From the NCBI GenBank assembly GCA_903835185.1, contig CAILLX010000133.1, forward strand, positions 6,174 to 70,173: a DNA stretch of 64,000 nucleotides. Direction: 5' to 3'. Positions within the stretch are counted from its first letter, which is position 1, and every line of letters begins with the position of its first letter. This document shows positions 2,899 through 42,415 of the stretch, piece after piece. Source of the stretch: an uncultured bacterium. GTDB lineage: Bacteria > Cyanobacteriota > Vampirovibrionia > Obscuribacterales > Obscuribacteraceae. Made by a program: the position numbers and the translations under genes. Below the pieces are notes generated by a model. It was not told the origin of the DNA. It saw only the letters and a list, made by a program, of their open reading frames with translations, and searched no databases.

Positions 2899-2922
2899 AC
2901 AGCCTGCCAGGGCTTGGCTATC

Positions 2923-16586: not shown

Positions 16587-16718
16587 TAATTGCGCGATGA
16601 GCAAATTGGTTGCGCGAAAACTAAAATAATTGCGCGCAGCTTGTGATAATTGCGCGCAAAGGGACAAAAACAGCTTACAATTGGGAGTAATTGCGCGCAA
16701 ACGCTAAATAATTGCGCG
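16587..16718 (+). promoter_or_regulatory. array of six phased copies of ATAATTGCGCG(CAA), a palindromic core, upstream of the wHTH-Fic gene
   Basis: TGCGCG cores start at 16591, 16611 (degenerate copy), 16631, 16651, 16692 and 16713, giving spacings of 20, 20, 20, 41 and 21 bp. Copies 3-5 contain the perfect palindrome TTGCGCGCAA. The last copy abuts the AAAGGAG RBS of ATG 16731. Confidence 0.7.
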
Positions 16719-16730
16719 AAAGGAGCGTGC

Positions 16731-22500: not shown

Positions 22501-22604
22501 GCGAGCCTGGTTACTACAGGAGTATTATATGAATAGTAGTGGAACAACACTGGTCAGGAAATGCCAGTCACGGTGCTGCTGCACGACAAGCATCCGGTGA
22601 GCGT

Positions 22605-24458
22605 ATGTCGAAGCTATGGCGCATCTTATCTATAGACGGTGGCGGGATCAGAGGATTGATACCGGCCACAATTCTTTCTGTCATTGAAGAACGCACAGGC
22701 AAACCGATTGCTCAGCTTTTCGACATAATTGCCGGCACATCGACCGGAGGTATTCTGGCGCTGGGACTGACCAAACCGGACCAGTGCGGTCACCCTGAAT
22801 TTGCTGCCCGTGCTCTAAGAGACGCTTATGAGAAGGCAGCCCCCCACATCTTTCACAACCCAGCGTCCTGGTGGGAAAACCTGTTGCGTCCAAAGTATGT
22901 CTCATCATCTGGTATTAACCAGGTCATGCAGCGCTACTTTGGTGATGCCAGATTGAAAGACGCGTTGACAGACATTCTCATCCCCTGCTACGACATAGAG
23001 CACCGCTCGCCACACATATTTAAGAGTCACTGGGCAAGACGACAGCAGCAGTATGATTTCCCTATGAGCGACGTGGCGTGCGCTGCTGCCGCCACACCAA
23101 CTATGTTCGAGCCTGTGCGCTTGGCCAGACCTGGTGCTGGCGGGCATATGTCACTGGTAGACGGCGGAGTCTTTGCCAACAATCCGTCACTGCTTGCCCT
23201 GGCTGAATTAAACAGAATGTTCGCAGCCAAAGATGACGATTTCCTCGTCGTCTCCCTGGGAACTGGCGAATCGATGGAGATGATGACACGGAAGTATTTC
23301 AGCGATTGGGGTTATGTTCGCTGGTCAATCCCGATGATTGAGCTCGTCTCTGAAAGTGGCAGCGAATCTGTGCATGAACAGATGCGTTATCTGCTGCCGG
23401 CAACCGAATATCAACGATACTACCGCTTCCAGGTCGACCTGCCAGACAACGTGTATTACCCGCTGGACAATCCGTCCAAGAGAAACATGAGCGGACTGGT
23501 TAACGCAGCCGAAGAGCTGCTTGCTGACAGGCAGACTGAAAAGGAGATTAATACGCTCTGCAAACTGTTGTCTTCGAGCCAGCAACAGCAACAGTATGTT
23601 GAACTGCTCGAGCGGATTAATCAACAGTCCCGCGCAACAATACCTGTCGAAAATAATCTAGCACTAGATATGCAAGCCTGCTTTCAAGACGATGGACTGG
23701 GAAGGGAACCGGCTTATAAAACAAATTCATCTCGTCCTGGAAAGTTAAACTCCTGCGGTGAGAGTAAATACAAGCTGGTCAAAGGAACCTGTCAGCCGGC
23801 AACAGCGGAGAGCCTCAGTGTGTATGAATCTGCCTGTCTCTCACGGATTAAAGATTGCAAGGTGGTGCTTTGCTACGCTGAAGAAGATCTTGACGTAGCT
23901 CGCCCACTTGCTGATGCTCTGGCAACAAGGGGAATTAAGACAGTATTTGAGAAGTTCGGCACACAACCAAAGGAGAGCATTCGCCGCCTTGTATCACACG
24001 CAGCAGAGAGATCTCTTATCAGCATTGTCGTTCTCAGTCCGGCATTGTTGAAAAACACCTGGGCATCAAAGCCGCTTGAATGGCTCTACTCCAGAACACT
24101 TGGTGGGAAAAACGTGATCCTGCCGGTGATGCACAAGTTCGGGCAGAAGGATGTGGCATCTCTAGCACGCCATCTCCGCTGGCACAAAATGGCGTTAAAG
24201 TACTGGGAGTATCTGCTGGATCCTGCAGAAGGCACTACAGCGGCCGGAATTGCACCATTGGCTAACCATCTGGCTGAGGAGATAAAGCTCTGGCTGGCAG
24301 CAGGGAACCAGAACACCAGCAACTGTGATCTGCAAAGCGAGGACATCGTAACAGCTAGCAGTGCCACTAATGGAGAGCCAGCACACAACCCAAACAATGT
24401 CACTCTCAAGGAATCTCAAGCTCCACCTGTCCAGTGCGCCATGACAGACGAGTTCTAA
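22605..24458 (+). CDS. patatin-like phospholipase fused to a C-terminal TIR domain
   Basis: Patatin motifs: oxyanion DGGGIRG, nucleophile GTSTGG, catalytic Asp VDGGVFANNP. A poly-Gln linker (SSSQQQQQY) follows. TIR-like C-terminus VVLCYAEEDLDVARPLADALATRGIKTVFEKF...SLISIVVLSPALLKNTWASKPLEW...ILPVMHK. ATG 22605 is preceded by GGTGAG. Confidence 0.85.
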   Translation: MSKLWRILSIDGGGIRGLIPATILSVIEERTGKPIAQLFDIIAGTSTGGILALGLTKPDQCGHPEFAARALRDAYEKAAPHIFHNPASWWENLLRPKYVSSSGINQVMQRYFGDARLKDALTDILIPCYDIEHRSPHIFKSHWARRQQQYDFPMSDVACAAAATPTMFEPVRLARPGAGGHMSLVDGGVFANNPSLLALAELNRMFAAKDDDFLVVSLGTGESMEMMTRKYFSDWGYVRWSIPMIELVSESGSESVHEQMRYLLPATEYQRYYRFQVDLPDNVYYPLDNPSKRNMSGLVNAAEELLADRQTEKEINTLCKLLSSSQQQQQYVELLERINQQSRATIPVENNLALDMQACFQDDGLGREPAYKTNSSRPGKLNSCGESKYKLVKGTCQPATAESLSVYESACLSRIKDCKVVLCYAEEDLDVARPLADALATRGIKTVFEKFGTQPKESIRRLVSHAAERSLISIVVLSPALLKNTWASKPLEWLYSRTLGGKNVILPVMHKFGQKDVASLARHLRWHKMALKYWEYLLDPAEGTTAAGIAPLANHLAEEIKLWLAAGNQNTSNCDLQSEDIVTASSATNGEPAHNPNNVTLKESQAPPVQCAMTDEF

Positions 24459-25359: not shown

Positions 25360-26808
25360 ATGTCAACGCTGTCAACAGGGACTCTGGTGCTGTTTGCACT
25401 CGCTGCGCTTATAGCGTTTCTTGTACCTTTTATCCGGGAGGCTGCCTACAAGCAGCTGACCTGGTTGCCGGAATGGCAGGCTGTAAAGCGATTTGCTGCA
25501 GTCCTTTTACCGTTCTTGCTATTAGCTTTATTGGCGCAGTATTTTAAGATTGCTGCCGGTGATGCTCTTCGTTATTTAGCAGCCGGGGCACTTGTGCCAT
25601 TTTTCTTAGCCCGCTTAAGCCTGCCAGCACGCCTCAATGGAATCATCCTCCTTGCTATGACTGTGGCACTTACTTGTCTTGTCAAAGATGCAACCGCTGT
25701 CCCTGCCTGCTTTGCTCTTATCTGCGGGGCAGCTGTATGGAAAGTAAGCGAGAACCTGCTCATAGGAGCAGTCTCTTCAGTAGAAGATATTCTGCCAGCG
25801 CTTATCTGGCTGGTAGGAGTCAATTGGGTAAGGACAGCCTTGCCAGAAGCTCAATGGTTGTCGCATGACGGAATCCTGCTAGCAACTCTGTCTGTAGTGC
25901 TCATAATAAGGACAGTGCAAAACAGGTTTGTCTGCTTAGACAAGCTGTTTGTCAAGCGGATCCTTTTAGCAGTAGCAGGAGGAGCAGGAGTTCTTCTTGT
26001 CATGAACAAGCTGCTGCTCTTGCCGCTACAAAACTCTCTTTGCCCGCTAGCTGCTCTAATTGGAGCCGGAATTCTAGTAAGCTATCTCTTGGAAGGTTTA
26101 AAGAGTACAGAGGCGCCAAGCGGACAATCACAGCTCACTTCCGCAGTAAGCATACTTGTTCTTGTAGGTATTTTGACTCTTGTATCAACACGCCTTTTTG
26201 GCAATTTCGGGCTGCTGGCAGTAGCTCCAACTATGCTTTTAGGTAGTGCCGAAAGCTTTGCTCACCCGGCAGCACTATTCCTGGTGGCACGCGGTTTGCT
26301 TCAGGGTTATACATTGACATATGTGCAAAATGTCACAGGAGTCAACCTGACTCACCCTTATACAACAGCAGCTCTTTTTGCCGGTTTTCTACTTTCCGGA
26401 CTGGCAGTCGCTACATTGCGCGATATAAGTCAGAGACGCTGGTGCGTGACAATCATACTGGCGGCAGGCGGCTTAACTCCTCTCTTGTCTAACTTCTTCC
26501 TGCACGAAGAGCCTACCGGCAGCCTCTTGATCTCAACCACAACAGCAGCAGTAATGCTGGCAGCGCTTGGACCGGCTCTCTGCCGCACCAATGTGTCACA
26601 GCAATCCAACCTCCTTTTGCTACCGCTGCTTATGACCGCTTTTGCTCTCTGGAGTCACGAATTAATTGAGCTGGGTAACGCCGGCACTGGCGTTGACAAG
26701 ATAGTAATTCTTCTCTATTGTGCCACTGCAGTAATAGTATTCTCCGGACTGCTTTACTGGTTGTTCTCCCGCTTAGCGAGGCAGCAGGTAGAGGTCGCGG
26801 GAGACTAG
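25360..26808 (+). CDS. polytopic integral membrane protein of unknown function (about 12 TM)
   Basis: GAGGAG RBS before ATG 25360. The sequence is almost entirely hydrophobic helices. Confidence 0.6.
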   Translation: MSTLSTGTLVLFALAALIAFLVPFIREAAYKQLTWLPEWQAVKRFAAVLLPFLLLALLAQYFKIAAGDALRYLAAGALVPFFLARLSLPARLNGIILLAMTVALTCLVKDATAVPACFALICGAAVWKVSENLLIGAVSSVEDILPALIWLVGVNWVRTALPEAQWLSHDGILLATLSVVLIIRTVQNRFVCLDKLFVKRILLAVAGGAGVLLVMNKLLLLPLQNSLCPLAALIGAGILVSYLLEGLKSTEAPSGQSQLTSAVSILVLVGILTLVSTRLFGNFGLLAVAPTMLLGSAESFAHPAALFLVARGLLQGYTLTYVQNVTGVNLTHPYTTAALFAGFLLSGLAVATLRDISQRRWCVTIILAAGGLTPLLSNFFLHEEPTGSLLISTTTAAVMLAALGPALCRTNVSQQSNLLLLPLLMTAFALWSHELIELGNAGTGVDKIVILLYCATAVIVFSGLLYWLFSRLARQQVEVAGD

Positions 26809-27543
26809 CTGCTGGATGTTACCATCTGTGCGAAACACATCCACAAGCAGCTTTTCATCTGTCCTGCAACGCACAAATGTGTGCACACTATCTGCTGCTG
26901 GCAGGCAAGCAAAACGACTGCTCAACAGCTGAATTGTAAGTGCACTGCGATCCACCCGACAAGCAATCATGACAGGATTGCCTGTACTGTTCAAAAAGCG
27001 TAGATCACAGCGCCCGTACCAGACAGTAGCATCTAACCCGGGCGGCACAGTATGCACAGGGCGTGTGTGAGCAGTTCGCTCTGCAATCACCAGTCCACCT
27101 GCTAACACAGTTTGATAAAGAGCAGATGAGAGGCAACAGATGCCCCCACCAACAGAATGAGTGGTCTGGGCGCCTATATAAGTGCCGGCTGAACAATAAC
27201 CACGTTCGACAGTGCGCGGACCGACTCTAGCGTTAAAAGAAAAGACCGCTCCGGGAGCCAGGACTGTCCCGTCTATAGCATGTGCTGCAAGGCAAATATT
27301 AGTCCTCTGAGCAGAACTGAGCTCATTTACAGAGACACTCTTTGAGACAAGAGGACGGGAAAACGGATCGAATAGCCACAGACTGAGCAGAAGCAACAGC
27401 GGCACAAGCCAGATAGAATGATCTGCCAGCGATACTGTCCTGCCACCGAGCCGGGCTGCCACATCACATATAAATGCATGCATTTTGCCTCTGGAGCCGT
27501 ACCTGTTGGTCTCTCCCGCTCCCACGTCACCTCCTGCCGTCAC
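26773..27543 (-). CDS. VanW-family protein
   Basis: N-terminal TM segment, then FSFNARVGPRT..RGY and VGGGICCLSSALYQTVLAGGL...ERTAHTRP, as in the VanW domain. The GTG start overlaps the A2M stop (GTGA). Confidence 0.75.
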   Translation of the reverse strand: MTAGGDVGAGETNRYGSRGKMHAFICDVAARLGGRTVSLADHSIWLVPLLLLLSLWLFDPFSRPLVSKSVSVNELSSAQRTNICLAAHAIDGTVLAPGAVFSFNARVGPRTVERGYCSAGTYIGAQTTHSVGGGICCLSSALYQTVLAGGLVIAERTAHTRPVHTVPPGLDATVWYGRCDLRFLNSTGNPVMIACRVDRSALTIQLLSSRFACLPAADSVHTFVRCRTDEKLLVDVFRTDGNIQQLVSRDLYLLPR

Positions 27544-30500
27544 TCTACAACTTTTAAATAATCCAGAGGTGAATAAGCTCGCACCCGCTTGGTGTACATA
27601 CCTTCAACTGACATCGGGTTGATCTGGAAGGTACCGGGCATCTCGAGACGCACCAGAGTCCAGAACTCATGTTTGCCAGCCGGCAGGCTGGTCACGAAAA
27701 AGACAATGCGGTCATCCAGGATATCCTGATGTGTCCACCACAAGTCGCCCCAGTCACCAGTAATGCCAGAGGCACCGCTACTGCTGGACTCCACCATCTC
27801 TTTGCGTGAATCATCTTCCACTACTTCCGCACCGCTGGGCAACGCTGCTTCCAATATGACGTAGGGCAAACGTACTGGCGCCTCGACATTGACCTTCATC
27901 AGCACAGTCTCGCCTGCATGTATTACATGATCAGTGATTGCTTCAGTGTTGTAATGAATTGAGCCGTCCGACTTGACAGCATTTGGCTTCAGCCTGAAGA
28001 ACTGGCGCTCCAGGTGAACGCCTTGCGGCATTGATTTTTCAACAGCCTGATCACCAGGCAACAGATGTCGCATATAAGTAAGCAGGCTTGAATAGTAGAG
28101 TCGCCCCGGACCTGTCTTCTTAAGCAGCAACTCAGCCGGTGAGCTTGGCACTGGAACAGCAAGAGTCTCTTCAGGAGCATACGCACTGCGCTCGCCAAAA
28201 GTCAGGTTGGTCAAAGCGGTGCCTGCTAGTGTTGCAACCAGGGAGAAGTCCGGCTTTCCGTGCGAGCGTGCTTTCAATTCCTCATTAAGGAGGGCTACAA
28301 AGACCTCTGCTGTGGTCTTTGTATTCCCCCAGCCGTCGCGGTCACGGTTAAGCAGAATCCAGTTCTTTATCGCTTCAATCTTATCGGAGGCACCAGGTTC
28401 AGCAGCTAGAACAGCCTCAAGCGCCAGTGCTGTTGTCTCAACTCCTGTAAAACGGTAGCTGTATGGCACAAACTCCCCAGAAGCACTCCTGGCACTGAAG
28501 CGCTTAAGCAATGACTCACGGTGATCCCAGTCCATCATATTGTCATTAACGTAAGCCAGGCTAATGAGCCGTTTGTAGAAGAGGTTAGCGTTGGTGCTAT
28601 CGCCGCTTTGCAAGCAGGCTCTGGTCAGACAAGAGAGCGCCTCCGGTGTCAGTTTTCTGTTTACTGCCTGCAGCTGCTTCACCATTGCCGTAGCCGGGTG
28701 CTGCCCATAAAGACTCATGACATGCACAGCTTTAGCAATATCAATATAAATTTCCTGCTCTGAATAATCGTTGCGTAACAACTTAGGATCATTAAGCTGC
28801 TTGAACACAGCTGGTAACGACCTGGAAAGCCAGTTAAGCGCTTTGTTTGTCCTTGACTTGTCGACCTCCCGTCCACACTGTCTGAGCAGGTAATAACCCT
28901 CCAGAACGTGCGCAGTTAGATATATGTTGGAGCTGTCATTTTCCCACCAACCCCAGCCGCCATCGCTGTGCTGATAGTCATCCAGTTTCTTCACAGAAAG
29001 GTCATAAACTTTCTTGAACTTCTCTGACATCCCTTTATCCAGAGGCACACCAAGAGCTTGATTTAAGCGGATGGCAACTACTGACGGCATAAGGCGACTC
29101 ATAGTCTGTTCTGTGCAACCGTACGGATAGTCGATGAGCTTGCTGAAATTGCCTAAAACAGGTCCAATTGATGAAGCTGCCAGCGAAAGTTGATATTTTG
29201 CTGTCGCAGGAACAGCATCGCGGGAGAGCCCAACAGGCAGAACAGCCTCGCTAGAGTCCAAAGACAAAACGCCAGATTTGGCTGCAAAAGCCGGCAGACC
29301 AAGAGGACGCACCGGGATTTTGCGTTCAATGGCATCACCTGCTGTCTGCCCTACTGCCTTGCAGAAGATAGTGCTTTGTCCAGATCCAACAACCTTAATA
29401 GGCCACTCTATACGCTCAGCTGCTTCAGGAGCAATGCCACGATCTTGCACAAGCGGCTTGCTCACCTCGAACTGAGGCGGAGACTCCAGAGTCACTTTAA
29501 CTTTTTGAGTCTTGTCTGTGTAATTGTGTACAACAGCGCTGATGACACCAACATCACCTTCAGTAAAGAAACGTGGCAGAGCAAGTCTTAAAATTAAATC
29601 TTGCGTAGAGACAATCTTGCTTATAGCCGCACCCACATTAACAGCCAGATCGATACCACGTACTGTGGCACGCCAGGTTGTGAGATTATCGGGCAACTTG
29701 ATGGTAGCAGTTGCTACACCGTCAGAATTAGTCGTGAGCGCCGGAACCCAGGCAGCTGTATCGCGAAAGTCTTTCCTGACCCTGGGTTCAATCTTGTCCG
29801 GACCTCCAGAGTATTGTTCCGGGAAGGAGCACAAAGTATTGACACTATTGTATTTGCGGCTGTAGAAAAACTTCTGGATATTTTCGGCTGTTTCAGCACG
29901 AATGGCATAGATGCTCTCATCCACTACACCCAATGACACTTCTGTATTGGGTGCCGGTTTGCCATTGGCAGAAGTGGCATGAATAGTGTATTTGACACTG
30001 TCGCCAGGTTTGTACTTTGTCTTATCTGTTTCAACTGTTATGGTCAAGAAATGCTCTGCAGGAGAGACCTTAATCATCTTTGATTGAGTATAGAACTGAC
30101 GATCAGGTGCTACGACAGCCACACTGACAAAAACATCAGGCTCACATTCAGCTTTAATAGGCACCTCAACCAGCTGTGCAGTCGAAGTCATAGGAACAGT
30201 TCTATAGTTGAAAATATGTGATCCTTCTATCGAAACTATCGCCTCGGCTCCTTCAGTGCCTGTAAAAGGACCGCTAACCATCACCTTAGCTGTCTCGCCA
30301 GGCTTATAAATACTCTTGTCCAGCCTGACAGTGAGGGGCTCTTGATGAGCATCTTCACCGGCGAGCATATAAGGTGCAGACTGGTTGGCAATCCACAAGC
30401 TACTTTCGTCATAGACTATATGCCCGCTCTGGTCCACAGCTTGAGCAGTCACGTAATAAGTATCAGTCGGTAAAGCACCTTTGGTAGGGAAAGAGAGATG

Positions 30501-32573
30501 TCCCCCTCCGCGTTCATCTGTCGCGATTGTGTACTCCTTTTCAATTTCACGAGCACGATAGCTGTGTGCAGCTGCATCCCACGGCCAGCGTACCAACCGC
30601 ACAGTCACCTTCTGATTAGCCACCGGTTTGCGATCATAATCGACTGCGTTAAAGTCGATAGAGAGCCTCTGTCCTGATTTGACAACTGATGAGGTAGGCT
30701 GCACAAATACAGCGAAATTACCTGCCGTGACAGTTGCATAGCCGCTGGAAATCACACTCATACGGCTCAAATCAGTAACTTCAGCTTCAATCTTATAACG
30801 CTTATCAAGATACTGGGCGCCAAACGGATGAGATGTATCCGGCTCAATTGGCTGTGAATCAAAAGTAATTGTTGCTACACCGTTATCGTCTGTCTGGGCG
30901 TAACCTTCAGTGACAAAGTTGTTGCCATAACTGTCGTAATAATAGGATGAACCGCCATCCTCTTCGCCCCAGTCATCGAAATAACCGTAATAGCTTGGTC
31001 GTGCCATGAGGCGATAACGAGAAGACCAGTCTGTTGAAGAGTAGACTGAATACTTCACGCGAGCATTGCGTACCGGACCGCCAAAATAATATGTAGCATG
31101 CACGTGTGCTGTCACTTTCGCACCTGCCACCACTCGCGGTTGCGCCGGCAACACTTCCACTTGATATTCTGGTTTGCGATACTGGCTGACTTCAAAGCGT
31201 TCATAAGCTTTAGAGCCGTCAGGATAAGTAAACGTCACCTGGTAGGCTCCTGTCTTGCCCTCATCAGGAATATTAATTGTCCCGTTTACAGTGCCATGAT
31301 CGTTGGTTCGCAGATGTTGTTCAGTAAGTTTGTTATTGTCAGGATCTTCAACAACTGCTTGCACAGTAAGTCCTGTTTTGGGAGTCTTGTACCCAGCTGC
31401 TACCGACTTGCGGATAATAGCTTTATAACAGACTGTCTGTCCAAGTCTGTACACTGGGCGATCTGTATAAAAGTAGGTTTGATAACTATCTGCTCGATTA
31501 GAAAAATACCAGGCAGCTCCATAAGCATGCTGGTTGCCGATTGTGCCTACCACCATCAAATTCCGGCTCTCGTCACCTTGCGGACTGGGGAGCGAGACAA
31601 AGCCATCGACAGCTGTGACCCCGGTTGCCATAGGCTTACCTACTGCTGACTGACTGACCAGATACATGGAAACTTTTACGCCTTGTTTAGCATGCAAGCT
31701 CCGCAGGTCAACTGCACGCACCAGCGTGCGATCAGGAGCTTGCTTAATCACCAGCCCTATGTCTGTGACAGCAAACCACATAAAGTTGCGGTCAACCTTA
31801 CCCTCCATATTGGTCAGCTCTGCTACAGCAAAATAATCGCCTGGGGCAAGCGGCTTCGTAAGCTTAAAGTCAGCACGAGCAGAGTCGTTGTCATCCAGAG
31901 AGAGCTCCCTGGACAAAGTGGCTACAGGAGCTCCAGCGGCAATAAAATTAACTACTTCAGCTCCGGAGCGGTAGAACTGCAACTCAGCTGAAAGGTCAAG
32001 CCCGTTGTCTCCCCAATCTCTTTCTGTTAGCAAAGAAAGAAAGTCTTTACGATATAGTTTCACCTTGGCGTGCATACCGCCGGAGGCGTTCAGCCAGAAG
32101 TGCGGCAGCTCGGCTGTTGTAAACACACGTGTATTTGAAGCAACAGTGACAGACGGCTGAAGAACATTCATGGCAATAGTCTTGGGCAGAGCAGTCGTTT
32201 TGCCTTCGTCAACAAAAATGCCGCTTTCATGCTCAGTTGAGTAGCCCGGTGCATGTGCTTTTAAAGTGTATTCACCTACAGGCAGGTGGTCTATACGGAA
32301 GGATCCATCTGGTGTCACCCAGACACCACGTTCTATCGTCTGGTCACCGCGTGGTCCCTGAGCCACTGCATAAACTTTGTTTTGCCGAATGTCATAAGAA
32401 AAAAGATGGAAGTCTGTCTTTTCAAGCGCAATCCGCCCGGCAAGAGATCCTGTCGGTTTAGCCAGGCTCAAAATTAAGATGCCAAAGAGAACGAGCTTTA
32501 ATAATGTCAAGTAGACCGGTAAGAAAATATCTTTTTCGCTCTTGACCAACGACTTTGTTTCACTGGTAGACAT
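27540..32573 (-). CDS. bacterial alpha-2-macroglobulin (thioester-containing, YfhM/ECAM-like)
   Basis: 1677 aa with an N-terminal signal/anchor and many Ig-like MG-domain repeats. Thioester motif YPYGCTEQTMSRL, alpha-helical TED region (DGGWGWW), and C-terminal receptor-binding-like domain. Confidence 0.9.
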   Translation of the reverse strand: MSTSETKSLVKSEKDIFLPVYLTLLKLVLFGILILSLAKPTGSLAGRIALEKTDFHLFSYDIRQNKVYAVAQGPRGDQTIERGVWVTPDGSFRIDHLPVGEYTLKAHAPGYSTEHESGIFVDEGKTTALPKTIAMNVLQPSVTVASNTRVFTTAELPHFWLNASGGMHAKVKLYRKDFLSLLTERDWGDNGLDLSAELQFYRSGAEVVNFIAAGAPVATLSRELSLDDNDSARADFKLTKPLAPGDYFAVAELTNMEGKVDRNFMWFAVTDIGLVIKQAPDRTLVRAVDLRSLHAKQGVKVSMYLVSQSAVGKPMATGVTAVDGFVSLPSPQGDESRNLMVVGTIGNQHAYGAAWYFSNRADSYQTYFYTDRPVYRLGQTVCYKAIIRKSVAAGYKTPKTGLTVQAVVEDPDNNKLTEQHLRTNDHGTVNGTINIPDEGKTGAYQVTFTYPDGSKAYERFEVSQYRKPEYQVEVLPAQPRVVAGAKVTAHVHATYYFGGPVRNARVKYSVYSSTDWSSRYRLMARPSYYGYFDDWGEEDGGSSYYYDSYGNNFVTEGYAQTDDNGVATITFDSQPIEPDTSHPFGAQYLDKRYKIEAEVTDLSRMSVISSGYATVTAGNFAVFVQPTSSVVKSGQRLSIDFNAVDYDRKPVANQKVTVRLVRWPWDAAAHSYRAREIEKEYTIATDERGGGHLSFPTKGALPTDTYYVTAQAVDQSGHIVYDESSLWIANQSAPYMLAGEDAHQEPLTVRLDKSIYKPGETAKVMVSGPFTGTEGAEAIVSIEGSHIFNYRTVPMTSTAQLVEVPIKAECEPDVFVSVAVVAPDRQFYTQSKMIKVSPAEHFLTITVETDKTKYKPGDSVKYTIHATSANGKPAPNTEVSLGVVDESIYAIRAETAENIQKFFYSRKYNSVNTLCSFPEQYSGGPDKIEPRVRKDFRDTAAWVPALTTNSDGVATATIKLPDNLTTWRATVRGIDLAVNVGAAISKIVSTQDLILRLALPRFFTEGDVGVISAVVHNYTDKTQKVKVTLESPPQFEVSKPLVQDRGIAPEAAERIEWPIKVVGSGQSTIFCKAVGQTAGDAIERKIPVRPLGLPAFAAKSGVLSLDSSEAVLPVGLSRDAVPATAKYQLSLAASSIGPVLGNFSKLIDYPYGCTEQTMSRLMPSVVAIRLNQALGVPLDKGMSEKFKKVYDLSVKKLDDYQHSDGGWGWWENDSSNIYLTAHVLEGYYLLRQCGREVDKSRTNKALNWLSRSLPAVFKQLNDPKLLRNDYSEQEIYIDIAKAVHVMSLYGQHPATAMVKQLQAVNRKLTPEALSCLTRACLQSGDSTNANLFYKRLISLAYVNDNMMDWDHRESLLKRFSARSASGEFVPYSYRFTGVETTALALEAVLAAEPGASDKIEAIKNWILLNRDRDGWGNTKTTAEVFVALLNEELKARSHGKPDFSLVATLAGTALTNLTFGERSAYAPEETLAVPVPSSPAELLLKKTGPGRLYYSSLLTYMRHLLPGDQAVEKSMPQGVHLERQFFRLKPNAVKSDGSIHYNTEAITDHVIHAGETVLMKVNVEAPVRLPYVILEAALPSGAEVVEDDSRKEMVESSSSGASGITGDWGDLWWTHQDILDDRIVFFVTSLPAGKHEFWTLVRLEMPGTFQINPMSVEGMYTKRVRAYSPLDYLKVVE

Positions 32574-33186
32574 CGGCTCTTATCCTGTATAGCTGGCACG
32601 GTTCGCCAGGACGGATCCCGGCTTTCAATTTACACTTAACAAGCTGGTAGTAAGCGTCGCGCGCTTCCCCAGGCAAAAGGATACCTGACTTACCGCCAGC
32701 TCTGACCATCAGTCCGTCAGAAAGCGGGTTCTGCATTTCGATACTATGTATCGGCTCAACTGCTTTGACAACAGTGACCTGCACTTTGAGCTGCTCCCAT
32801 TCACCACTACTGATAAGGCGGAAGCGATAATCATGTGTTAACGCTGCCACAGTGGCATAAACAGTAGCAGCAACTAGGTCTTTATGCACTGGAGTTAAAG
32901 ATCCCCAGCAGGCTCTTGACTGCCCTCTTCGCGATAATGTGACAAACAGTCCGCCCTGCTTGCTCGCACTTTCGCCCGCCGGAAACTCCTGGATTAACTT
33001 TGCCAGAGAGCCCCTCTTGAGCCTGTCGCTAGCAAAGTAGTACTCAACAGTTCGTCTGGCCACCTGAGTAAGTGTGACCGAAGGCAGTGCCTGGACTGAT
33101 GAAGACAGCAGCAACAAACAGGCTAGCACTGATGTGACAGCATAAACTCTCGAAAGTCCAGATAATTTTGTCACTTCTGCTCCCAC
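32560..33186 (-). CDS. AMMECR1-like protein with an N-terminal signal peptide
   Basis: GGLFVTLSRRGQSRACWGSL (compare FVTL..G.LRGCIG), DYRF, and GLMVRAGGKSGILLPGEA (compare hGl.i..g...g.fLPqVa). Hydrophobic leader VTSVLACLLLLSSSVQA. Overlaps the A2M start by 14 nt. Confidence 0.65.
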   Translation of the reverse strand: MGAEVTKLSGLSRVYAVTSVLACLLLLSSSVQALPSVTLTQVARRTVEYYFASDRLKRGSLAKLIQEFPAGESASKQGGLFVTLSRRGQSRACWGSLTPVHKDLVAATVYATVAALTHDYRFRLISSGEWEQLKVQVTVVKAVEPIHSIEMQNPLSDGLMVRAGGKSGILLPGEARDAYYQLVKCKLKAGIRPGEPCQLYRIRADVYQ

Positions 33187-33352
33187 CAGCTAAACTGATC
33201 TGAGCGCACAGATGGTGCCACCAGGACCACGGTCGCTACTCGTGTAGATGAGCAGGCTAACATGCCGCAGCCTCTAAGACAACGGCTGCATCGCCGTCGA
33301 CTCCTCGCTGTATGCTGGTAGCTTAGAACAAACACTGGCGGGATAACAAACA

Positions 33353-34276
33353 ATGGGTGCAGATGAAAACAATGATAGATATTCTACAGGCCGGCGGCAG
33401 TTTCTGAAGCTGCTTTTCGGAGTCGGCAGCACAATTGAAACCAAGCCAGCCGAGGCTAGCAGATCCATTCCTGGAAATTTTTTCTGGGCAGATCTCAAGA
33501 GTGGACAGATAGGTTTTCCAACCGGCTGTTCACTGCCTGCTGCACTGCCTGGATCTTTAATGAAACTGCCAGCAGCAGCAGCTATTCGCAATGAACACCT
33601 CTTGCCTGAAAACACCACGTTTGAGTGTACCGGCACAATCACAATTCACCAGAAGAGATACAACTGCCAGATTGCCCATGGGGTCTTAGACCTGGCTCAA
33701 GCGATTGGGCACTCTTGCAATGTTTTCTTTGCCCAGGCAGCTGAGTCGCTCGGCTGCGCTACATTCCTCTCGTATGCTTGCCGATTCGGACTGGATAGAG
33801 CAGTAGCTGGATTTGCCTCCGGACCTTTCCCGGCTGAGTGCAGAGGCACCACTCAACAATATGTGCTTGGCTTATCTGAAGATTTTCAACCGCACGCCTT
33901 GCAAATTCTGCAGATGAGCGCTCTTATTGCCACCAGAGGTCGCCTCCCATCCCTCCACAGCGCAGAGGATCCAAACCCTGCTTATGTGTCGCCGGTTCTC
34001 CATCTCAAAGATTCCACCTGGGAGCTGCTTAGTCACGGTATGCAACTGTCCTGCCGGATGGGTACTGCTCACGCTCTCGATCCAGGCAACAAGCTTCACC
34101 TGGCTGTAAAGACCGGTACCGCTCCTTATGGCAAAACTTTTCAGTCATGGGCAACAGGTTATTTCCCGGCAGAATCTCCACGCTATGCATTTTGTGCCCG
34201 AGCACAGGTAGGTACCAGTCAGACCAGCGCTGTGCCGCTTGCTCACCAATATCTCTTTGCAACGAACTGGCCCTGA
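33353..34276 (+). CDS. penicillin-binding transpeptidase-domain protein with a Tat-type signal
   Basis: GRRQFLKLL twin-arginine motif. All three PBP boxes are present: SLMK (SxxK), SCN (SxN) and KTGTA (KTG). There is no glycosyltransferase or dimerisation domain. Confidence 0.72.
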   Translation: MGADENNDRYSTGRRQFLKLLFGVGSTIETKPAEASRSIPGNFFWADLKSGQIGFPTGCSLPAALPGSLMKLPAAAAIRNEHLLPENTTFECTGTITIHQKRYNCQIAHGVLDLAQAIGHSCNVFFAQAAESLGCATFLSYACRFGLDRAVAGFASGPFPAECRGTTQQYVLGLSEDFQPHALQILQMSALIATRGRLPSLHSAEDPNPAYVSPVLHLKDSTWELLSHGMQLSCRMGTAHALDPGNKLHLAVKTGTAPYGKTFQSWATGYFPAESPRYAFCARAQVGTSQTSAVPLAHQYLFATNWP

Positions 34277-35096: not shown

Positions 35097-35681
35097 TTAC
35101 GAGCGAGCAGCAATGCGTTTTCTGTTTTGTACAACAGGCTCACCCTGAGCAGCCTTTTCGTTGGCAAAGCGCCAGTATAGTTCGAAGGCGTACCAGAAAA
35201 GTACGATAGGCGAGATACTCATAAAGGCATCTTCTGCACCTCCCCGCCGCCAGCGCAACACGCCAGCTGCCATAAAAAGCAACGGAACTACTGACTTCAG
35301 GTCTAACGCATGACTTGTGGCCGAAGAAAGATGCCCGTTGGCAGCTGTGACCATATCCTTGACAAAATGCCCCACAGTTGCCAACCCGCCTGTCTCCACA
35401 TCCGCGTCATCAGCAACAAGAGACTCTAAAATGTCGCCGGAAGAGTCTGTCAGTGTCTTTTCTATAGCAGCAAGGATGCCTGCCTCTTCGTCGTGATGAA
35501 TGAGAATGCTGCCAGTGCCATAATCCAAATCTACGCCGTTGACGCCAGGAGTAGTTCGCAACGCATCGGCTGCATTGTCCAGCTCCTGAACAGATCGATA
35601 TTGCTTAGGTACTCTCAGTCGCGTACGCATGGGCAGATGGTGCACTACACCTTTTGACCGCACATTTAGTCGTCCAACCAT
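35097..35681 (-). CDS. HMA2-like (heavy-metal-associated-like) domain protein with C-terminal TM helices
   Basis: VVHHLPMRTRLRVP...ALRTTPGVNGVDLDYGTGSILIHHD resembles the HMA2 fold signature (HxxPGRxRxxVP ... GV..v..n..tgS.l..yd). Two hydrophobic helices at the C-terminus. Confidence 0.5.
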   Translation of the reverse strand: MVGRLNVRSKGVVHHLPMRTRLRVPKQYRSVQELDNAADALRTTPGVNGVDLDYGTGSILIHHDEEAGILAAIEKTLTDSSGDILESLVADDADVETGGLATVGHFVKDMVTAANGHLSSATSHALDLKSVVPLLFMAAGVLRWRRGGAEDAFMSISPIVLFWYAFELYWRFANEKAAQGEPVVQNRKRIAARS

Positions 35682-35767: not shown

Positions 35768-36019
35768 TTACGCTTCTTCCTTGTGCGTATGCTTCTTAGC
35801 ATGACCTTTACGCTCGGACTGGACTTCAGCTACAACATCTGTAGCCTCTTCGCGCACTTCAGAAACAATCTCTTTGACACGTTCGCTTACAACGAGCCCG
35901 GCCCGAATGACTCCTTTAGCTGCAGTGCGTAAGAACTTGCGCCCGCCTGGCATAACAAATAGCACAACAGCTAGTAGTCCCCAACGTCCCGTGACAACTC
36001 CGAACAACTCTTCTAACAT
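35768..36019 (-). CDS. small membrane protein, DUF5132-like
   Basis: 83 aa with an N-terminal TM helix and a charged helical tail (KEIVSEVREEATDVVAEVQSE). Directly upstream of the HMA2-like gene. Confidence 0.4.
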   Translation of the reverse strand: MLEELFGVVTGRWGLLAVVLFVMPGGRKFLRTAAKGVIRAGLVVSERVKEIVSEVREEATDVVAEVQSERKGHAKKHTHKEEA

Positions 36020-37673: not shown

Positions 37674-39092
37674 TCAATTCTTCCCAACACGTCTCACTGC
37701 TTTCATGCCAAAAGCATGAGCAACAGAAGCTGGTGCCGTCTCATCCCAGAGAGCAAGCGGACAATTCACTGCATCCTGGCTCCCTTTGCGCCACAAAGCT
37801 TGATAACGGCAGCCGCCACCACACACTGGAAGGTAGGCACAAGATTTGTCTTTGCAGAAAGCCACCACGTCACGCACGGCTGCTAGCTCACTGCCGGCAG
37901 TGGTGATCCCGTTTTGGATACTGCCTATTGAGTATGCTCCGTCAGACATGGTGAATGAGCATTTGAAGAGACGCCCGACCCAATCGACAACAAAGGCATG
38001 GGACTGCACCACATTACATGGCTTATACGGTCCGGTAAAAAGCGGAGTGCGGAATCGTTTGGCTATAACTTCACTTAAAGCCGCTCCAAGCAGGCGCGGA
38101 ACATCCTGGCAATATGCCGGGCTCTGAGCAGCTTCTGTTGCCAGAGGGGCACTACTTGACGGCAAAACGGGAACAGTTGGTTCCAGTATTATCTCCACTT
38201 TCTCGGACAGCCCGGCAGCAGTGAGAAGATCCAGAAGTTCGGAAATGTGGCTGACATTATCCTCATCTATATTTATGCTAATACCAACGCCTATCTCGTC
38301 AATATCTGCTATGGCGCAGAGGTTGTTAACTATGGTGTTAAATGTTCCTGCTCCTGACGCCATAGGTCTGCGTGTGTCATGAATAGAAGGCGGACCATCT
38401 AGTGTAACTCTCACATAGCGCAGCCCTTTGCTTGCCCAGTCACAAGCCAGCTCGCGGGTCAGTTTGATACCGTTTGTGGTCAGTCCCATTGAAAAGCCTA
38501 GATTTCTCCGGGCAGCAATCTGTCTGAGCCTGTTGATATATTCCTGTCCAACGCTCAAAGCAGCTAACGGCTCGCCTCCAAACAGCAGAACATAAATTGC
38601 TTCAATTTCACTGTGCTCTGATAGATACTGCTCTACCCAGCCAGCTGTTTGATCCATCAGGAGAGGAGTGTGAGCCTCACCACCTTGACGCCCAGTTTGG
38701 AAACAGTATGTGCACTTCAGTTGGCAGGCAGCCGTGTAAGCCAGAGTAAGCTTCAATGTGCGCTCGCCCCAATACTCAGACAGCAATGCCTGCCCGCCAA
38801 TATCATCAACTGAGCTTGATTCTACTACTGCACCAATTGAGCTCAACTGTTCAAGTGACTCAGGTGCCAAAGCCAGCGCCTTGCACTTTCGGACAGAGTC
38901 TGTAGCGCTGGAGAACTGCCGGAAGAGCTGCTTTGAGCCTCCACCTTGCGGCAGACAGGAGGAGAGCTCACGAGCCACTTCCGGCTCAACCAACGCTGCG
39001 CTACCACGAAGTGTGTTATAGACCAGCACATCGATGGTCTCTTCCAGCGGAATAACTAAGTTAAAGCGGCTAGCCACCGGCATTGCAATCAC
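37674..39092 (-). CDS. radical SAM / SPASM-domain peptide-modifying enzyme
   Basis: CQLKCTYCFQ (CxxxCxxC) rSAM cluster, LFGGEPL, and a C-terminal Cys-rich SPASM region (CNVV...KCSF...CKDKSCAYLPVCGGGCRYQA). An N-terminal extension of about 100 aa could be a peptide-recognition element. Confidence 0.88.
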   Translation of the reverse strand: MIAMPVASRFNLVIPLEETIDVLVYNTLRGSAALVEPEVARELSSCLPQGGGSKQLFRQFSSATDSVRKCKALALAPESLEQLSSIGAVVESSSVDDIGGQALLSEYWGERTLKLTLAYTAACQLKCTYCFQTGRQGGEAHTPLLMDQTAGWVEQYLSEHSEIEAIYVLLFGGEPLAALSVGQEYINRLRQIAARRNLGFSMGLTTNGIKLTRELACDWASKGLRYVRVTLDGPPSIHDTRRPMASGAGTFNTIVNNLCAIADIDEIGVGISINIDEDNVSHISELLDLLTAAGLSEKVEIILEPTVPVLPSSSAPLATEAAQSPAYCQDVPRLLGAALSEVIAKRFRTPLFTGPYKPCNVVQSHAFVVDWVGRLFKCSFTMSDGAYSIGSIQNGITTAGSELAAVRDVVAFCKDKSCAYLPVCGGGCRYQALWRKGSQDAVNCPLALWDETAPASVAHAFGMKAVRRVGKN

Positions 39093-39110
39093 TCACGAAT
39101 CATCAATCGC

Positions 39111-39278
39111 TCTACTTGAGGCGCTCTTTTTGCACAGGGCGCTGAGCTTGAATCTTATGTACTTCAGAGAGGTTCGTAGCCAGGACCTTAACACCACCCT
39201 TGCTGGCACAGGTTGAGCCTGAGTTACTGTCCCGATTGGCTTGTTTTGGGCTGTCAGCATTCTTGGTTTTTGCGTTCA
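39111..39278 (-). CDS. unannotated 55-codon ORF, candidate RiPP precursor peptide
   Basis: Hand translation gives MNAKTKNADSPKQANRDSNSGSTCASKGGVKVLATNLSEVHKIQAQRPVQKERLK*. GGGAAGGTGA lies 3 nt before the ATG. The stop is 18 nt upstream of the rSAM start on the same strand. It is below the 60-aa cutoff of the ORF track. Confidence 0.45.
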
Positions 39279-39601
39279 TCTGTCACCTTCCCTTAGCTAA
39301 GGCTTTCATAATACGGTTTTTCGGCCAGCTTAGCAGCCTAGTCAAGTAATTTTCAACTGCCTGGTTAACAATTGGACCGCTCCAGCCGGATAAATACGGA
39401 CTATCTGACCTCTTATTGCACCTCGTGCACTGCTGGCGTGTTGGTACAAAGAGGATGAAGTTGATTGTAGGGCAGTAGATGATCATTTTTAAATTGAATC
39501 GTCAGAAGTGATTTAGCTAGTCCTAAATCCGGCTGCTACAGAAGATTTCGCAACGTTGAGCTGCATTTCTGAATAAATCACATCCCCACCCAGGGGTAGG
39601 G

Positions 39602-42415
39602 TTGTTTGTCCTCACATTGGCGGATATGCTTACGACCTCATTGGGAGAGGAGCATGGGACTTTGTTGTTTACACAAACTGGTATTCGCTGTGCTGCAATC
39701 GTTGCCGCTTGTACCACTCTTTTATGTTGCGGTCCGGCAACTGCTGCCAACTCGCAACCGGATGGGGACGGGCAGAAGAATTCCTCGCCAGCAGAATCTG
39801 CAGTAAGCACCCAACATTATAGCCAACAACCATCGTCCAAACCGTCTCCACAACCGGTCAACGGCACAGTAACCTACGCCAGCGCACCGGTGTCAGGCGC
39901 AACCGTAACCCTTGCCGGACCTAAGGTGAGCGACCGCCTGCACACGCTCACCGATTCTGCTGGCAACTTCTTGTTCGACAAAGTACCGGCGGGAGAGTGG
40001 ACCCTTACGGTGAAAGCCGAGGGAATGTTCTGCAGATCGAAAACAATTACCGTTGCAGCCGGTGAGCCGCAACCATATGCTCTCGTCATGGAGCCAGTTG
40101 AGTCTTCAGATGTTTTGCGTATCACCGGTAAGCGGACGTTAATCCATCCGGAAAACATAAGCAATACAACCAATTTAGATCGCACATTTCTGGACGAGTA
40201 CAAATCCGGCAACAGTCTGCGCGACAATATAATCAGTACTCCGGGAATGCAAATGTGCCCAAATAGCTGCCCTGTTCCTAGAGGCGAGACTAACGCTGTT
40301 AACTATGTTCTTGATGGCGTCGTATTGCCTCAAGCTTCTGGTGTGATGGCTCCGGGTCAGTTTGTTACACCAAGATCACTGCAATCGCTAAGTGCGTATG
40401 CTGGCGGCTATCAGGCCCAAGATGGCGGTGGTCCATTGGGAGCTGTCGTGCTTATGAAGTCACGGTCAATCGAGTCCAAACCGGTCTGCGAGTGGGGAGG
40501 TCAATTGGGAGGTCCACTGGCAGGCACACTTGACTACTATGTCAGCTCAGCTCTAAGCCAGGATCCTAAAAGCATACTCAATCGCATTCGATTTGAGTCA
40601 TCAGGTGCTGCTGTTGCGACGAGATACGGTCTTCCACCGCCCGTGCGGCACTTCGTGCGCAATTCACGGCTAGACATCAACAGCCTGACTAGCGTGGAAT
40701 TCCAGGCAACAGAAAGAGACACGTTCAGATTGACGGCCGGAGTGAATGAGACATTTCTGCAGCTCCCAACGTCTCGCCAAACTCTGTCCTTTGGGCTCAA
40801 ACAAAGCCAACAAGTACAGCAGCACTATATTATCGCTAGCTACAAGCATCAGTTTGAAAAATGGCTGGATGAAGCTGATCTGCATTGCATTAGCGCCTTC
40901 TATTCCGAACGGTGGAACAGTACAAATGCCTTCGACCCTACCTCGCTATTGTACGGAGGCATGAACCAGTGGTCGGTCTCACCGCAAGCCAAAAGACTCA
41001 ATTATGTGACTTCAATCCAGGGGAACGTATCAAAAACTGCATTTGCGACGCACCACTTAAAAGCTGGTGTCCTGACCGAACTGCGCCCTGTAAGCACAAG
41101 CATTTCTGAAACTTGCTACAATGCGGCATTACCGTCTTCTGGCAGCATGGGCTCCATGGATAGCAGCATGAGCTCCATGAGTGGTGGCATGGGCTCCATG
41201 GGTAGTGGCATGGGCTCGATGGGCGGCAGCATGAGCACAATGATTTTGCCCCCATATGGTGGCAGAATAAGTCCATTCACCAGTGCAACAATAGGTCCGC
41301 AGATACAAGGCGGCATCGGCAAATTGCACGGCTTTCGCTACTTGCAGAGCGCATACTTTCAAGACTCATGGAAACCCACCACCGGCATCCTCAAGAGGTT
41401 GACTGTAGCTGCCGGTGTCCGGGCCGATGTCTATTACGGTTTGTTCGGCAACACAATGAATGTGGCCGACGCCATAGCAATTGTGCCAGGTACAGTGCCC
41501 TTTCAGCTACAACCGTTTCAAACACATACTGTATGCAATGCGCAGGCTAGCGGGCGCTACGGAATCTCTTATGTGCTGACCAAGAGCACAGTGCTACGCG
41601 CTGCCTACTCTGATGTTTTTGCGCCGCCACCCGTTGATTCTTTCGTGCGTCCGTTTTCTGTTACAGGTGGTACCATAAACGGCATTTTTAACGGCTCGTT
41701 GCGCCCATTGTCTGCGCAACGCGGCAGGGTAATTGATACTGCTGTAGAACAACAAATCGGACCTCGTTTTGCATGCCGAACAAACCTGTATTATAAAGAC
41801 CTGAAGAATTTCTTTGATATGATGCCAGTTGACAACACTGTGATCATGCAACAGGTAAACGTTTCCGGGTTTAAGGACTATGGTATTGAAACGCGTTTGG
41901 ACCTCAAACCGTCGCGCGACGGTACTGGTTGGAGCGGTTTTGTCTCAAATACTATTGCTGTGGCTAAGTATACTGGCAGCCAAAGAATTACCGGCGGAAT
42001 GTATGACATAGGCTCTTCGAGCTACATAATGCCAATGGGAGAATATGCTCCTCTAGATCGCCGATGGGTAATGCAAGCAGGTATTACCCATAGAACAAAA
42101 AGCAATTTCTGGATCAATCCCATAATAAACGCTTTCACTGGCACTCCGGACTTGCGTATGGTTTATCCGCACCCTGCCCGCACTCCTGCCGGAGCAGTGA
42201 TTTCATTGAACATGGGTTATGATGTTCCGCACAAATATTGCAATCAACACTGGTGGATGCCTTCCGGAGTAGATGTACGAATTCTGAACATATCCAACCA
42301 GCGGGTACCTATAACCTATAACAGCATGATGTATCAGAACACGCGTTACATGCTGCCATTGCAGGTTCTGGTCGAAATGAACTGGCACCACGGAGGACCA
42401 GTTCCAAGATCATGA
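39602..42415 (+). CDS. TonB-dependent-receptor-like outer-membrane protein with an N-terminal carboxypeptidase-regulatory-like domain
   Basis: GTVTYASAPVSGATVTLAG...TDSAGNFLFDKVPAGEWTLTV (CarboxypepD_reg-like), a plug-like region, and long alternating beta-strand sequence ending in an aromatic-rich barrel. A likely start is TTG 39662 after GGGAGAGGAG, giving signal peptide MLFTQTGIRCAAIVAACTTLLCCGPATAA. Confidence 0.7.
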   Translation: MFVLTLADMLTTSLGEEHGTLLFTQTGIRCAAIVAACTTLLCCGPATAANSQPDGDGQKNSSPAESAVSTQHYSQQPSSKPSPQPVNGTVTYASAPVSGATVTLAGPKVSDRLHTLTDSAGNFLFDKVPAGEWTLTVKAEGMFCRSKTITVAAGEPQPYALVMEPVESSDVLRITGKRTLIHPENISNTTNLDRTFLDEYKSGNSLRDNIISTPGMQMCPNSCPVPRGETNAVNYVLDGVVLPQASGVMAPGQFVTPRSLQSLSAYAGGYQAQDGGGPLGAVVLMKSRSIESKPVCEWGGQLGGPLAGTLDYYVSSALSQDPKSILNRIRFESSGAAVATRYGLPPPVRHFVRNSRLDINSLTSVEFQATERDTFRLTAGVNETFLQLPTSRQTLSFGLKQSQQVQQHYIIASYKHQFEKWLDEADLHCISAFYSERWNSTNAFDPTSLLYGGMNQWSVSPQAKRLNYVTSIQGNVSKTAFATHHLKAGVLTELRPVSTSISETCYNAALPSSGSMGSMDSSMSSMSGGMGSMGSGMGSMGGSMSTMILPPYGGRISPFTSATIGPQIQGGIGKLHGFRYLQSAYFQDSWKPTTGILKRLTVAAGVRADVYYGLFGNTMNVADAIAIVPGTVPFQLQPFQTHTVCNAQASGRYGISYVLTKSTVLRAAYSDVFAPPPVDSFVRPFSVTGGTINGIFNGSLRPLSAQRGRVIDTAVEQQIGPRFACRTNLYYKDLKNFFDMMPVDNTVIMQQVNVSGFKDYGIETRLDLKPSRDGTGWSGFVSNTIAVAKYTGSQRITGGMYDIGSSSYIMPMGEYAPLDRRWVMQAGITHRTKSNFWINPIINAFTGTPDLRMVYPHPARTPAGAVISLNMGYDVPHKYCNQHWWMPSGVDVRILNISNQRVPITYNSMMYQNTRYMLPLQVLVEMNWHHGGPVPRS
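41141..41240 (+). repeat. coding microsatellite-like tract giving a Met/Gly/Ser-rich loop
   Basis: GCATGGGCTCCATGG recurs at 41145, 41187 and (one mismatch, GCATGGGCTCGATGG) 41208, offsets of 42 and 21 nt. It translates to GSMGSMDSSMSSMSGGMGSMGSGMGSMGGSMSTM. Confidence 0.8.

Follow-up and report, generated by a model that had tools for sequence, protein, structure and literature searches.

Radical S-adenosylmethionine (SAM)/SPASM maturases are a main source of new peptide chemistry, and nearly all of those characterized use, to our knowledge, cysteine, aromatic, or hydroxyl partners. Here, we describe a short peptide gene and the adjoining radical SAM/SPASM enzyme gene on a 64,000-nucleotide stretch of DNA from an uncultured bacterium of the Obscuribacteraceae (contig CAILLX010000133.1; the whole stretch is called the window below). 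The best-scoring named family for this enzyme is the geopeptide system (TIGR04229 and TIGR04280), a family defined by bioinformatics in which, as at our locus, a short peptide gene lies directly 5' of the enzyme gene. The closest enzyme of known structure is CteB, the SCIFF maturase (PDB 5WGG and 5WHY), which forms bonds between Cys sulfur and carbon in a peptide with six Cys residues. That a core need not contain Cys is illustrated by the cyclopropylglycine synthases TvgB and TigE (PDB 8VPO), radical SAM/SPASM enzymes that carry a recognition domain and modify aliphatic side chains with neither a Cys nor an aromatic partner (PMC10878394). We propose, with a probability of roughly 0.72, that the pair described here is an operon of the type that makes ribosomally synthesized peptides that are modified posttranslationally (RiPPs), consisting of a ribosomally made precursor and a radical SAM/SPASM enzyme that modifies it. 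An initial annotation had put the locus forward as a candidate novel RiPP locus, and as a candidate it is supported by our analysis.

Results

The peptide gene lies on the minus strand at positions 39112 to 39279 and is an open reading frame (ORF) of 55 codons (55 amino acids plus the stop) with the translation MNAKTKNADSPKQANRDSNSGSTCASKGGVKVLATNLSEVHKIQAQRPVQKERLK. The initial annotation had given this translation correctly, with an end one base short of the true start base, 39279. A Shine-Dalgarno-like sequence, GGGAAGGTGA (39283 to 39292, minus strand), was read from the DNA 3 nt 5' of the peptide ATG and bears out the ribosome site claimed for this ORF. The ORF had also been called unannotated, but a public NCBI/ENA record already holds the identical 55-aa protein, unnamed. 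Downstream follows the maturase gene (37674 to 39092, minus strand), assigned using Pfam, NCBIfam, an AF2 model, and Foldseek, which encodes 472 aa from a GTG at 39092 or 469 aa from an ATG at 39083. The ATG is probably the true start, since the public gene call and the N termini of homologs (MPVASRFN...) both favor it. Counted to the GTG, the spacer between the two genes is accordingly 19 nt, and counted to the ATG it is 28 nt, rather than the 18 nt first reported.

We compared the DNA around homologs of the enzyme and defined an in-family set of 12 distinct loci, the window counted, whose enzymes are at least 37% identical to that of the window. In 11 of these 12 loci (enzyme identity, 37 to 48%), a homologous small ORF stands directly upstream of the enzyme gene on the same strand, as had been anticipated for orthologous enzymes; together with the ORF list and the identical public protein, this supports the assignment of the peptide gene. 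The C-terminal parts of the 11 peptides read ...VKVLATNLSEVHKIQAQRPVQKERLK (window), ...TRVLATSREQIRKQKQDRPSQDDRLK (L002), ...ITVLSVSLHQIQRLKSERPSQDDRLK (L014), ...IVVLARNFKSTRKLNKRRPPIDDRLK (L005), ...VKVICTSLEQIRQRSPGRPAQKERLK (L008), ...VTILTANIKVFVTSVSGRASQSGRLK (L004), ...IKVLTHCYRFMPTKSRRFRQEGRLK (L101), ...VKILMRPQLKRPTQKTRIK (L006), ...VRILSRPELKRPRQKSRNK (L012), ...VLIKPLSRATLKRPRQRARFK (L015), and ...FIKLLSRSSVRRPKQKARFK (L020), and two more family peptides from the database end in ...KRPTQKARVK and ...KRPIQKARVK. Their common C terminus is R-[P/F/A]-x-[Q]-x-x-R-[L/I/F/N/V]-K, with Lys always the final residue before the stop; in the window it is R-P-V-Q-K-E-R-L-K (residues 47 to 55; 39115 to 39141, minus strand), with the stop directly after. 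In alignments, R47, R53, and K55 are invariant across the family peptides and Q50 and P48 are nearly so, Ile replacing the motif Gln in L005.

A second element, a hydrophobic h-x-h-L strand, is found in all family peptides and corresponds in the window to V-K-V-L, the start of a leader-type stretch V-K-V-L-A-T-N (residues 30 to 36; 39172 to 39192, minus strand). The N-terminal halves of the peptides are unrelated in sequence to each other. The conserved regions are thus this strand and the C-terminal motif instead of the S-T-C-A-S-K-G-G or H-K-I-Q segments proposed in the initial annotation. The window peptide contains a single Cys, no Trp, Tyr, or Phe, and a single, nonconserved His, which agrees with the earlier description of a single-Cys peptide without Trp or Tyr. 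No Cys or aromatic column is conserved in the peptide alignments, and several family members are entirely Cys-free. With no match in any Pfam or NCBIfam model and a conserved core lacking Cys, Trp, and Tyr, the peptide stands outside the known classes, as had been suggested. An Rfam scan of the window likewise yielded no match.

The synonymous codons for the invariant Arg, Gln, and Lys differ between loci, and all three stop codons are in use, so that conservation is at the protein level and not at the RNA level. When metagenomes were scanned with the enzyme profile, a single in-family locus (L020) was recovered along with 79 distant relatives, which served as an out-group. With Gln fixed, the strict motif is found in 10 of the 12 in-family loci, once in each and always at the same position; it has no occurrence in the approximately 80 out-group radical SAM loci or in the window shuffled 100 times. 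The small ORF is a real gene, and its pairing with the enzyme is far beyond chance.

Peptide stop and enzyme start share an overlapping ATGA in L005 and L014, and most other loci have a gap of 10 to 30 nt. In L002, the enzyme start is uncertain: the called start of the radical SAM gene (5001) falls inside the peptide ORF (4915 to 5097) in another frame, with 39 nt between the peptide stop and the following in-frame start codon; the first 40 to 50 residues of this call (P0003, 527 aa) are probably not real. The gene call of another radical SAM homolog, P0007 (443 aa), is too short.

The family is small, with approximately 20 enzyme clusters (at 90% identity) of this type, and has been seen so far mainly in metagenome-assembled genomes of Candidatus Obscuribacterales/Melainabacteria, to which the named homologs belong. 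A profile search with the peptide over 1.84 billion proteins found four true representatives, the remainder being low-complexity false matches, from which it follows that most family peptides are uncalled as genes. A contig scan with the single enzyme sequence retrieved only an unrelated Streptomyces radical SAM protein (23% identity). In L004, genes for an IS605-type TnpB (OrfB_IS605/Cas12f-like) and a Y1 transposase (2655 to 4276) lie just 5' of the peptide gene.

The enzyme has both cluster-binding regions previously claimed for it, and their Cys residues are invariant in 24 homologs. The CxxxCxxC radical SAM motif comprises C123, C127, and C130 (38703 to 38726, minus strand), and the C-terminal SPASM region, for two auxiliary 4Fe-4S clusters, contains seven Cys residues, C359, C378, C413, C418, C424, C428, and C444 (37761 to 38018, minus strand). 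Their spacing, C359-x13-G-x4-C378 ... C413-x4-C418-x5-C424-x3-C428 ... C444, follows the SPASM motif CX9-15GX4C ... CX2CX5CX3C ... C, save that the first spacing of the second block is x4 instead of x2. In Pfam, the enzyme matches Radical_SAM (PF04055; 47.8 bits versus a cut-off of 29.5) and Fer4_12 only, with no match to the SPASM model. Full-length homologs form a group (P0002 to P0026) with 31 to 48% identity, after which the score falls from 251 to 167 bits.

Approximately 110 residues stand before the CxxxCxxC motif, in line with the N-terminal extension of about 100 aa described earlier, and a sequence signature of the N terminus, SxFN...LVYNTL...AALV, is kept across the window clade and its sister clades. 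An AF2 model built on 24 homologs was confident (pLDDT, 90.5; pTM, 0.90) and predicts an N-terminal domain (38838 to 39083, minus strand) in which three beta strands (residues 8 to 13, 19 to 23, and 28 to 32) are followed by helices (34 to 41, 60 to 66, and 74 to 82). RiPP recognition elements are leader-binding winged helix-turn-helix domains of three beta strands and three helices, and the same order of beta strands and then helices has been described for those of TigE, CteB, and SuiB (PMC10878394). As modeled, the N-terminal fold of our enzyme resembles a recognition element of the CteB type, and peptide binding is predicted by this analogy.

Searches by structure and by sequence pointed in the same direction. 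With Foldseek against the PDB, CteB ranked first (E = 5e-17, full-length alignment), followed by ChlB, the anaerobic sulfatase maturase (anSME), TigE (rank 9), SuiB, and SkfB, and CteB was also the best PDB match by sequence profile (E = 4e-26). The predicted layout of the window enzyme, with a recognition-type domain, a radical SAM barrel, and a SPASM domain, matches that of CteB, but their identity is only 16 to 17%. The anSME alignments span approximately 376 to 402 columns versus 477 to 494 for CteB and therefore do not cover the extra N-terminal domain. All of the best NCBIfam matches are RiPP maturases, every one under its curated cut-off: the geopeptide maturase TIGR04280 (198.8 bits versus 400; residues 70 to 458), TIGR04463 (170 versus 525; residues 10 to 445), CefB (144 versus 600), Clo7bot (114 versus 600), PapB (108 versus 340), CcpM (79 versus 500), and TIGR03974, the SCIFF maturase (77 versus 425). 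Below these came anSME (TIGR03942; 66 versus 349) and MftC (45 versus 265), and PqqE was not among the best 25 matches. A clustering with non-RiPP SPASM enzymes, considered in the initial annotation, was not seen.

One position near the SPASM region sets the window enzyme apart from its own clade. Tyr356 (472-aa numbering; 38025 to 38027) lies three residues before the first SPASM Cys, in G-P-Y-K-P-C, and the same position is Cys in all other enzymes of the clade with the R-L-K-type tail (GLCxPC), whereas the sister clades resemble the window (GVYYPC and GISYPC). Judging from the alignment, the Cys of the clade could be a fourth ligand of auxiliary cluster I, an arrangement that would suit a reaction without ligation of a substrate Cys. 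In TigE, a Tyr is a ligand on auxiliary cluster I (PMC10878394), and its positional equivalence to Tyr356 is putative.

Small peptides also precede more distant relatives of the enzyme. In the metagenome scan, enzymes 25 to 33% identical to that of the window had upstream peptides such as MKRITILDKGISKKDLTATCCKTGPAKIG, MKKRIIVLDKGVTGKDLLTGGCCPSSSQRA, and MKEEKEEGRQDLVVLDAGREGEFLVGPQIGCCLSAFVILWW. These sister-clade peptides combine an hhhLDxG leader strand with a Cys-Cys core, and many distant relatives (L021 to L099 and L018) share this organization in precursors of 27 to 45 aa. In L018 (enzyme 31% identical), the peptide IYILRDADKRPDVVCC... / ...EIYILRDADKRPDVVCCKIADFI joins the K-R-P element of the window family to a Cys-Cys core, and in L100 (enzyme 36% identical), a peptide with the strand RIILTLTSEG carries yet another core. 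The hhhLDxG peptides match the 22-position geopeptide model TIGR04229 weakly (E = 4.6e-4, under the cut-off). We infer that the hydrophobic strand may be a leader element common to these clades, read by the conserved recognition domain, and that in the window clade a core with Cys may have given way to the R-P-x-Q-x-x-R-L-K tail, which is basic and free of Cys; the shortness of the motif precludes statistics on either point.

A B12-binding radical SAM gene adjoins the maturase in L006 (3305 to 4954), L012 (6540 to 8198), L018 (4677 to 6527, after the pair), and L100 (2013 to 3863 and 4119 to 5988). Such a gene occurs with the R-L-K type and with other core types and is absent from the window; it possibly encodes an optional tailoring (methylation) enzyme.

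The pair in the window is flanked by genes for SpoIID/LytB, HMA_2, and DUF5132 proteins, a divergent TonB-dependent receptor (39602 to 42415, plus strand), and a TonB_C protein, with housekeeping genes further out. None of these neighbors recurs in the homologous loci, and they were therefore not counted as parts of the system. The divergent receptor gene described previously is thus present but does not belong to the conserved unit, and the idea that it and the TonB_C gene form an uptake system for the product was rejected, since neither is found in any homologous locus. As also reported before, neither a protease nor an ABC exporter gene adjoins the pair in the window. No sulfatase or amine dehydrogenase gene lies near it, and the GC content of the window gave no island signal.

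Respiratory genes, on the other hand, adjoin the pair in 9 of the 12 in-family loci, in several gene orders (gene tables for L005, L006, L008, L012, L014, L015, L020, and L101). Six loci have ResB plus CcsA (system II cytochrome c biogenesis), three have a NarGH-like/EB_dh/NarJ cluster, and NnrS, NorB, Rrf2 regulators, multiheme cytochromes, and ScdA occur in various loci; in the window, no respiratory neighbor was found across the 64 kb. This placement may stem from coregulation in anoxic conditions, from synteny within one order, or from a functional link.

Several further features of the window were recorded. A consensus scan gave a weak sigma-70-like promoter candidate, TTTAAA-18-TACAAT (39464 to 39493, minus strand; 9 of 12 matches), approximately 185 nt 5' of the peptide gene. 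A 67-aa ORF just 5' of the peptide gene (39283 to 39486, minus strand), the end of which falls within the peptide's ribosome site, was judged spurious and is probably not a gene because it has no Pfam match and no counterpart in homologous loci and overlaps the promoter-like site. The TonB-dependent receptor gene contains a Met/Ser/Gly-rich low-complexity insert (41135 to 41242; SSGSMGSMDSSMSSMSGGMGSMGSGMGSMGGSMSTM), and with the nearby HMA_2 (35097 to 35681, minus strand) and DUF5132 (35768 to 36019, minus strand) genes it possibly points to a metal-handling theme. Elsewhere in the window, a patatin-like phospholipase plus TIR_2 protein (22539 to 24458, plus strand) and a Fic-domain protein (16650 to 18104, plus strand) are possible defense or toxin genes. 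Within 26773 to 34276, a bacterial alpha-2-macroglobulin of 1,677 aa (27540 to 32573, minus strand) is flanked by VanW (26773 to 27543, minus strand), AMMECR1 (32560 to 33186, minus strand), and a short penicillin-binding transpeptidase protein (33353 to 34276, plus strand).

Discussion

Our data point to a peptide and a radical SAM/SPASM enzyme that have been kept together as a RiPP-type pair, plausibly a new uncharacterized precursor/maturase family within the known radical SAM/SPASM RiPP systems. The enzyme exceeds the family threshold of no curated model, and for the peptide we found neither a curated model nor, in the literature searched, a paper. Our literature search likewise found no paper on geopeptides, on TIGR04280, TIGR04463, or TIGR04229, or on radical SAM proteins of Melainabacteria/Obscuribacter.

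Compared with the closest described systems, the window pair shares their architecture and departs from them in its core. The sister-clade peptides, but not that of the window, match the geopeptide model weakly, and the hydrophobic leader strand is common to both groups of peptides. Unlike a geopeptide maturase, however, the window enzyme reaches half of the 400 bits set as the cut-off; TIGR04229 gave no match with the window peptide at E <= 0.01 and none with three family peptides at E <= 1, and the core of the family is R-P-x-Q-x-x-R-L-K and not Cys-Cys. The contrast with CteB lies likewise in the substrate, as the precursors of the window family have no conserved Cys. The second and third NCBIfam matches, TIGR04463, whose match includes the N-terminal domain, and CefB (Cys-every-fifth), have partner peptides that are Cys-rich, judging by the NCBIfam names. 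More generally, sactipeptide and ranthipeptide systems (SCIFF, PapB, CefB, and CcpM) are recognized by several conserved core Cys residues, the thioether donors, and by the family cut-off, and the window system shows neither; streptide and cyclophane systems (triceptide and darobactin type) conserve a core aromatic residue (Trp, Tyr, Phe, or His), and none is conserved in the window family. TvgB and TigE differ in that their substrates have repeated TVGG or TIGSVS motifs, whereas the window peptide has no repeat, and their GYW motif is not present as such in the window enzyme, where the putatively equivalent sequence is G-P-Y-K-P-C.

Considering these data, we propose a mechanism for the pair. 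First, the hydrophobic strand VKVL would pair with strand beta-3 of the recognition domain in the way that leaders do in CteB, which would put the last 7 to 10 residues of the peptide in the active site. The 5'-deoxyadenosyl radical would then take a hydrogen from an invariant residue of the tail (either Arg, the Gln, or the final Lys), with the electron passing to the auxiliary clusters. Since conserved Cys, Ser/Thr, and aromatic acceptors are all missing from the tail and the Lys must come last, the product would match none of the known kinds of thioether, ether, or cyclophane. Candidate reactions are the cross-linking of aliphatic or basic side chains, an epimerization, or, as with MftC, an oxidative decarboxylation or cyclization at the C terminus, for which that end must be free. 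The product may stay intracellular or may be processed by unlinked enzymes.

Several points weigh against the interpretation as a RiPP-type operon. One in-family locus, L010/L011, is the sole one to lack a convincing motif ORF. No protease, exporter, or immunity gene is conserved beside the pair in the homologous loci. The leader-strand homology with the sister clade draws on a short motif without statistics. Finally, modification of the peptide is a prediction, and its chemistry cannot be predicted from sequence.

Among the alternatives, the one that fares best, unlikely though we consider it, is that the peptide gives rise to a small redox cofactor or signal, following the pattern of pyrroloquinoline quinone (PQQ) or mycofactocin, only its C-terminal residues being modified and later excised, and that this product serves anaerobic respiration. 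The anchoring of the motif at the extreme C terminus in 13 of 13 peptides, as in MftA, would fit such a role, as would the lack of a conserved exporter and the position of most in-family loci beside respiratory genes in several gene orders. The MftA/MftC system likewise has a radical SAM/SPASM maturase and no dedicated exporter. MftA, however, ends in Gly-Val-Tyr, and in contrast to the pqq and mft clusters, no peptidase or tailoring enzyme is conserved with the pair; no equivalents of mftB, mftD, mftE, or mftF and no accessory genes were found in the window or in the homologous loci. The enzyme also scores far below the MftC cut-off, the window, L002, L004, and L010 are without respiratory neighbors, and the neighborhood could be explained by coregulation in anoxia or by synteny within one order.

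A second alternative, less likely still, is that the small ORF is a regulatory upstream ORF, acting through translational coupling or as a ribosome-arrest leader for the radical SAM gene, with the true substrate encoded elsewhere. In most loci, the ORF does end 0 to 30 nt from where the enzyme gene starts, with an overlap in some, and arrest peptides also carry conserved C-terminal motifs. However, such a function gives no role to the conserved hydrophobic strand 16 to 22 residues from the C terminus, the enzyme has, according to the AF2 model, a domain of the peptide-recognition type, and the sister clades have, at the same position, ORFs with a similar leader strand but with typical Cys-containing RiPP cores.

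Lastly, that the enzyme matures a protein, like anSME or QhpD, and that the adjoining ORF is incidental or spurious is very unlikely: anSME is among both the structural matches (Foldseek E of approximately 1e-13) and the sequence matches, but its model scores far under those of the RiPP maturases, it acts on a sulfatase and has no recognition domain whereas our enzyme has a predicted extra N-terminal one, the small ORF is conserved and motif specific, and neither of the genes for the corresponding substrates, a sulfatase or an amine dehydrogenase, is nearby.

Returning to the RiPP-type operon, its significance lies in a precursor in which conservation is confined to Arg, Pro, Gln, and a Lys that is strictly terminal. 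If the enzyme acts on this basic tail, the kind of reaction is likely to be undescribed for the clade. The pair also offers a natural set of variants and a compact, easily expressed two-gene unit. A more specific scenario, to which we give little credence, combines a radical modification that depends on the free C-terminal Lys and involves neither Cys nor aromatic residues (MftC-like or an Arg/Gln/Lys cross-link) with an intracellular cofactor or signal for cytochrome c biogenesis and nitrate/NO respiration in Obscuribacterales. The hosts belong to a little-studied group of nonphotosynthetic relatives of cyanobacteria, in which the recurrent placement of the pair beside respiratory gene clusters raises the possibility of a physiological, rather than an antibiotic, role.

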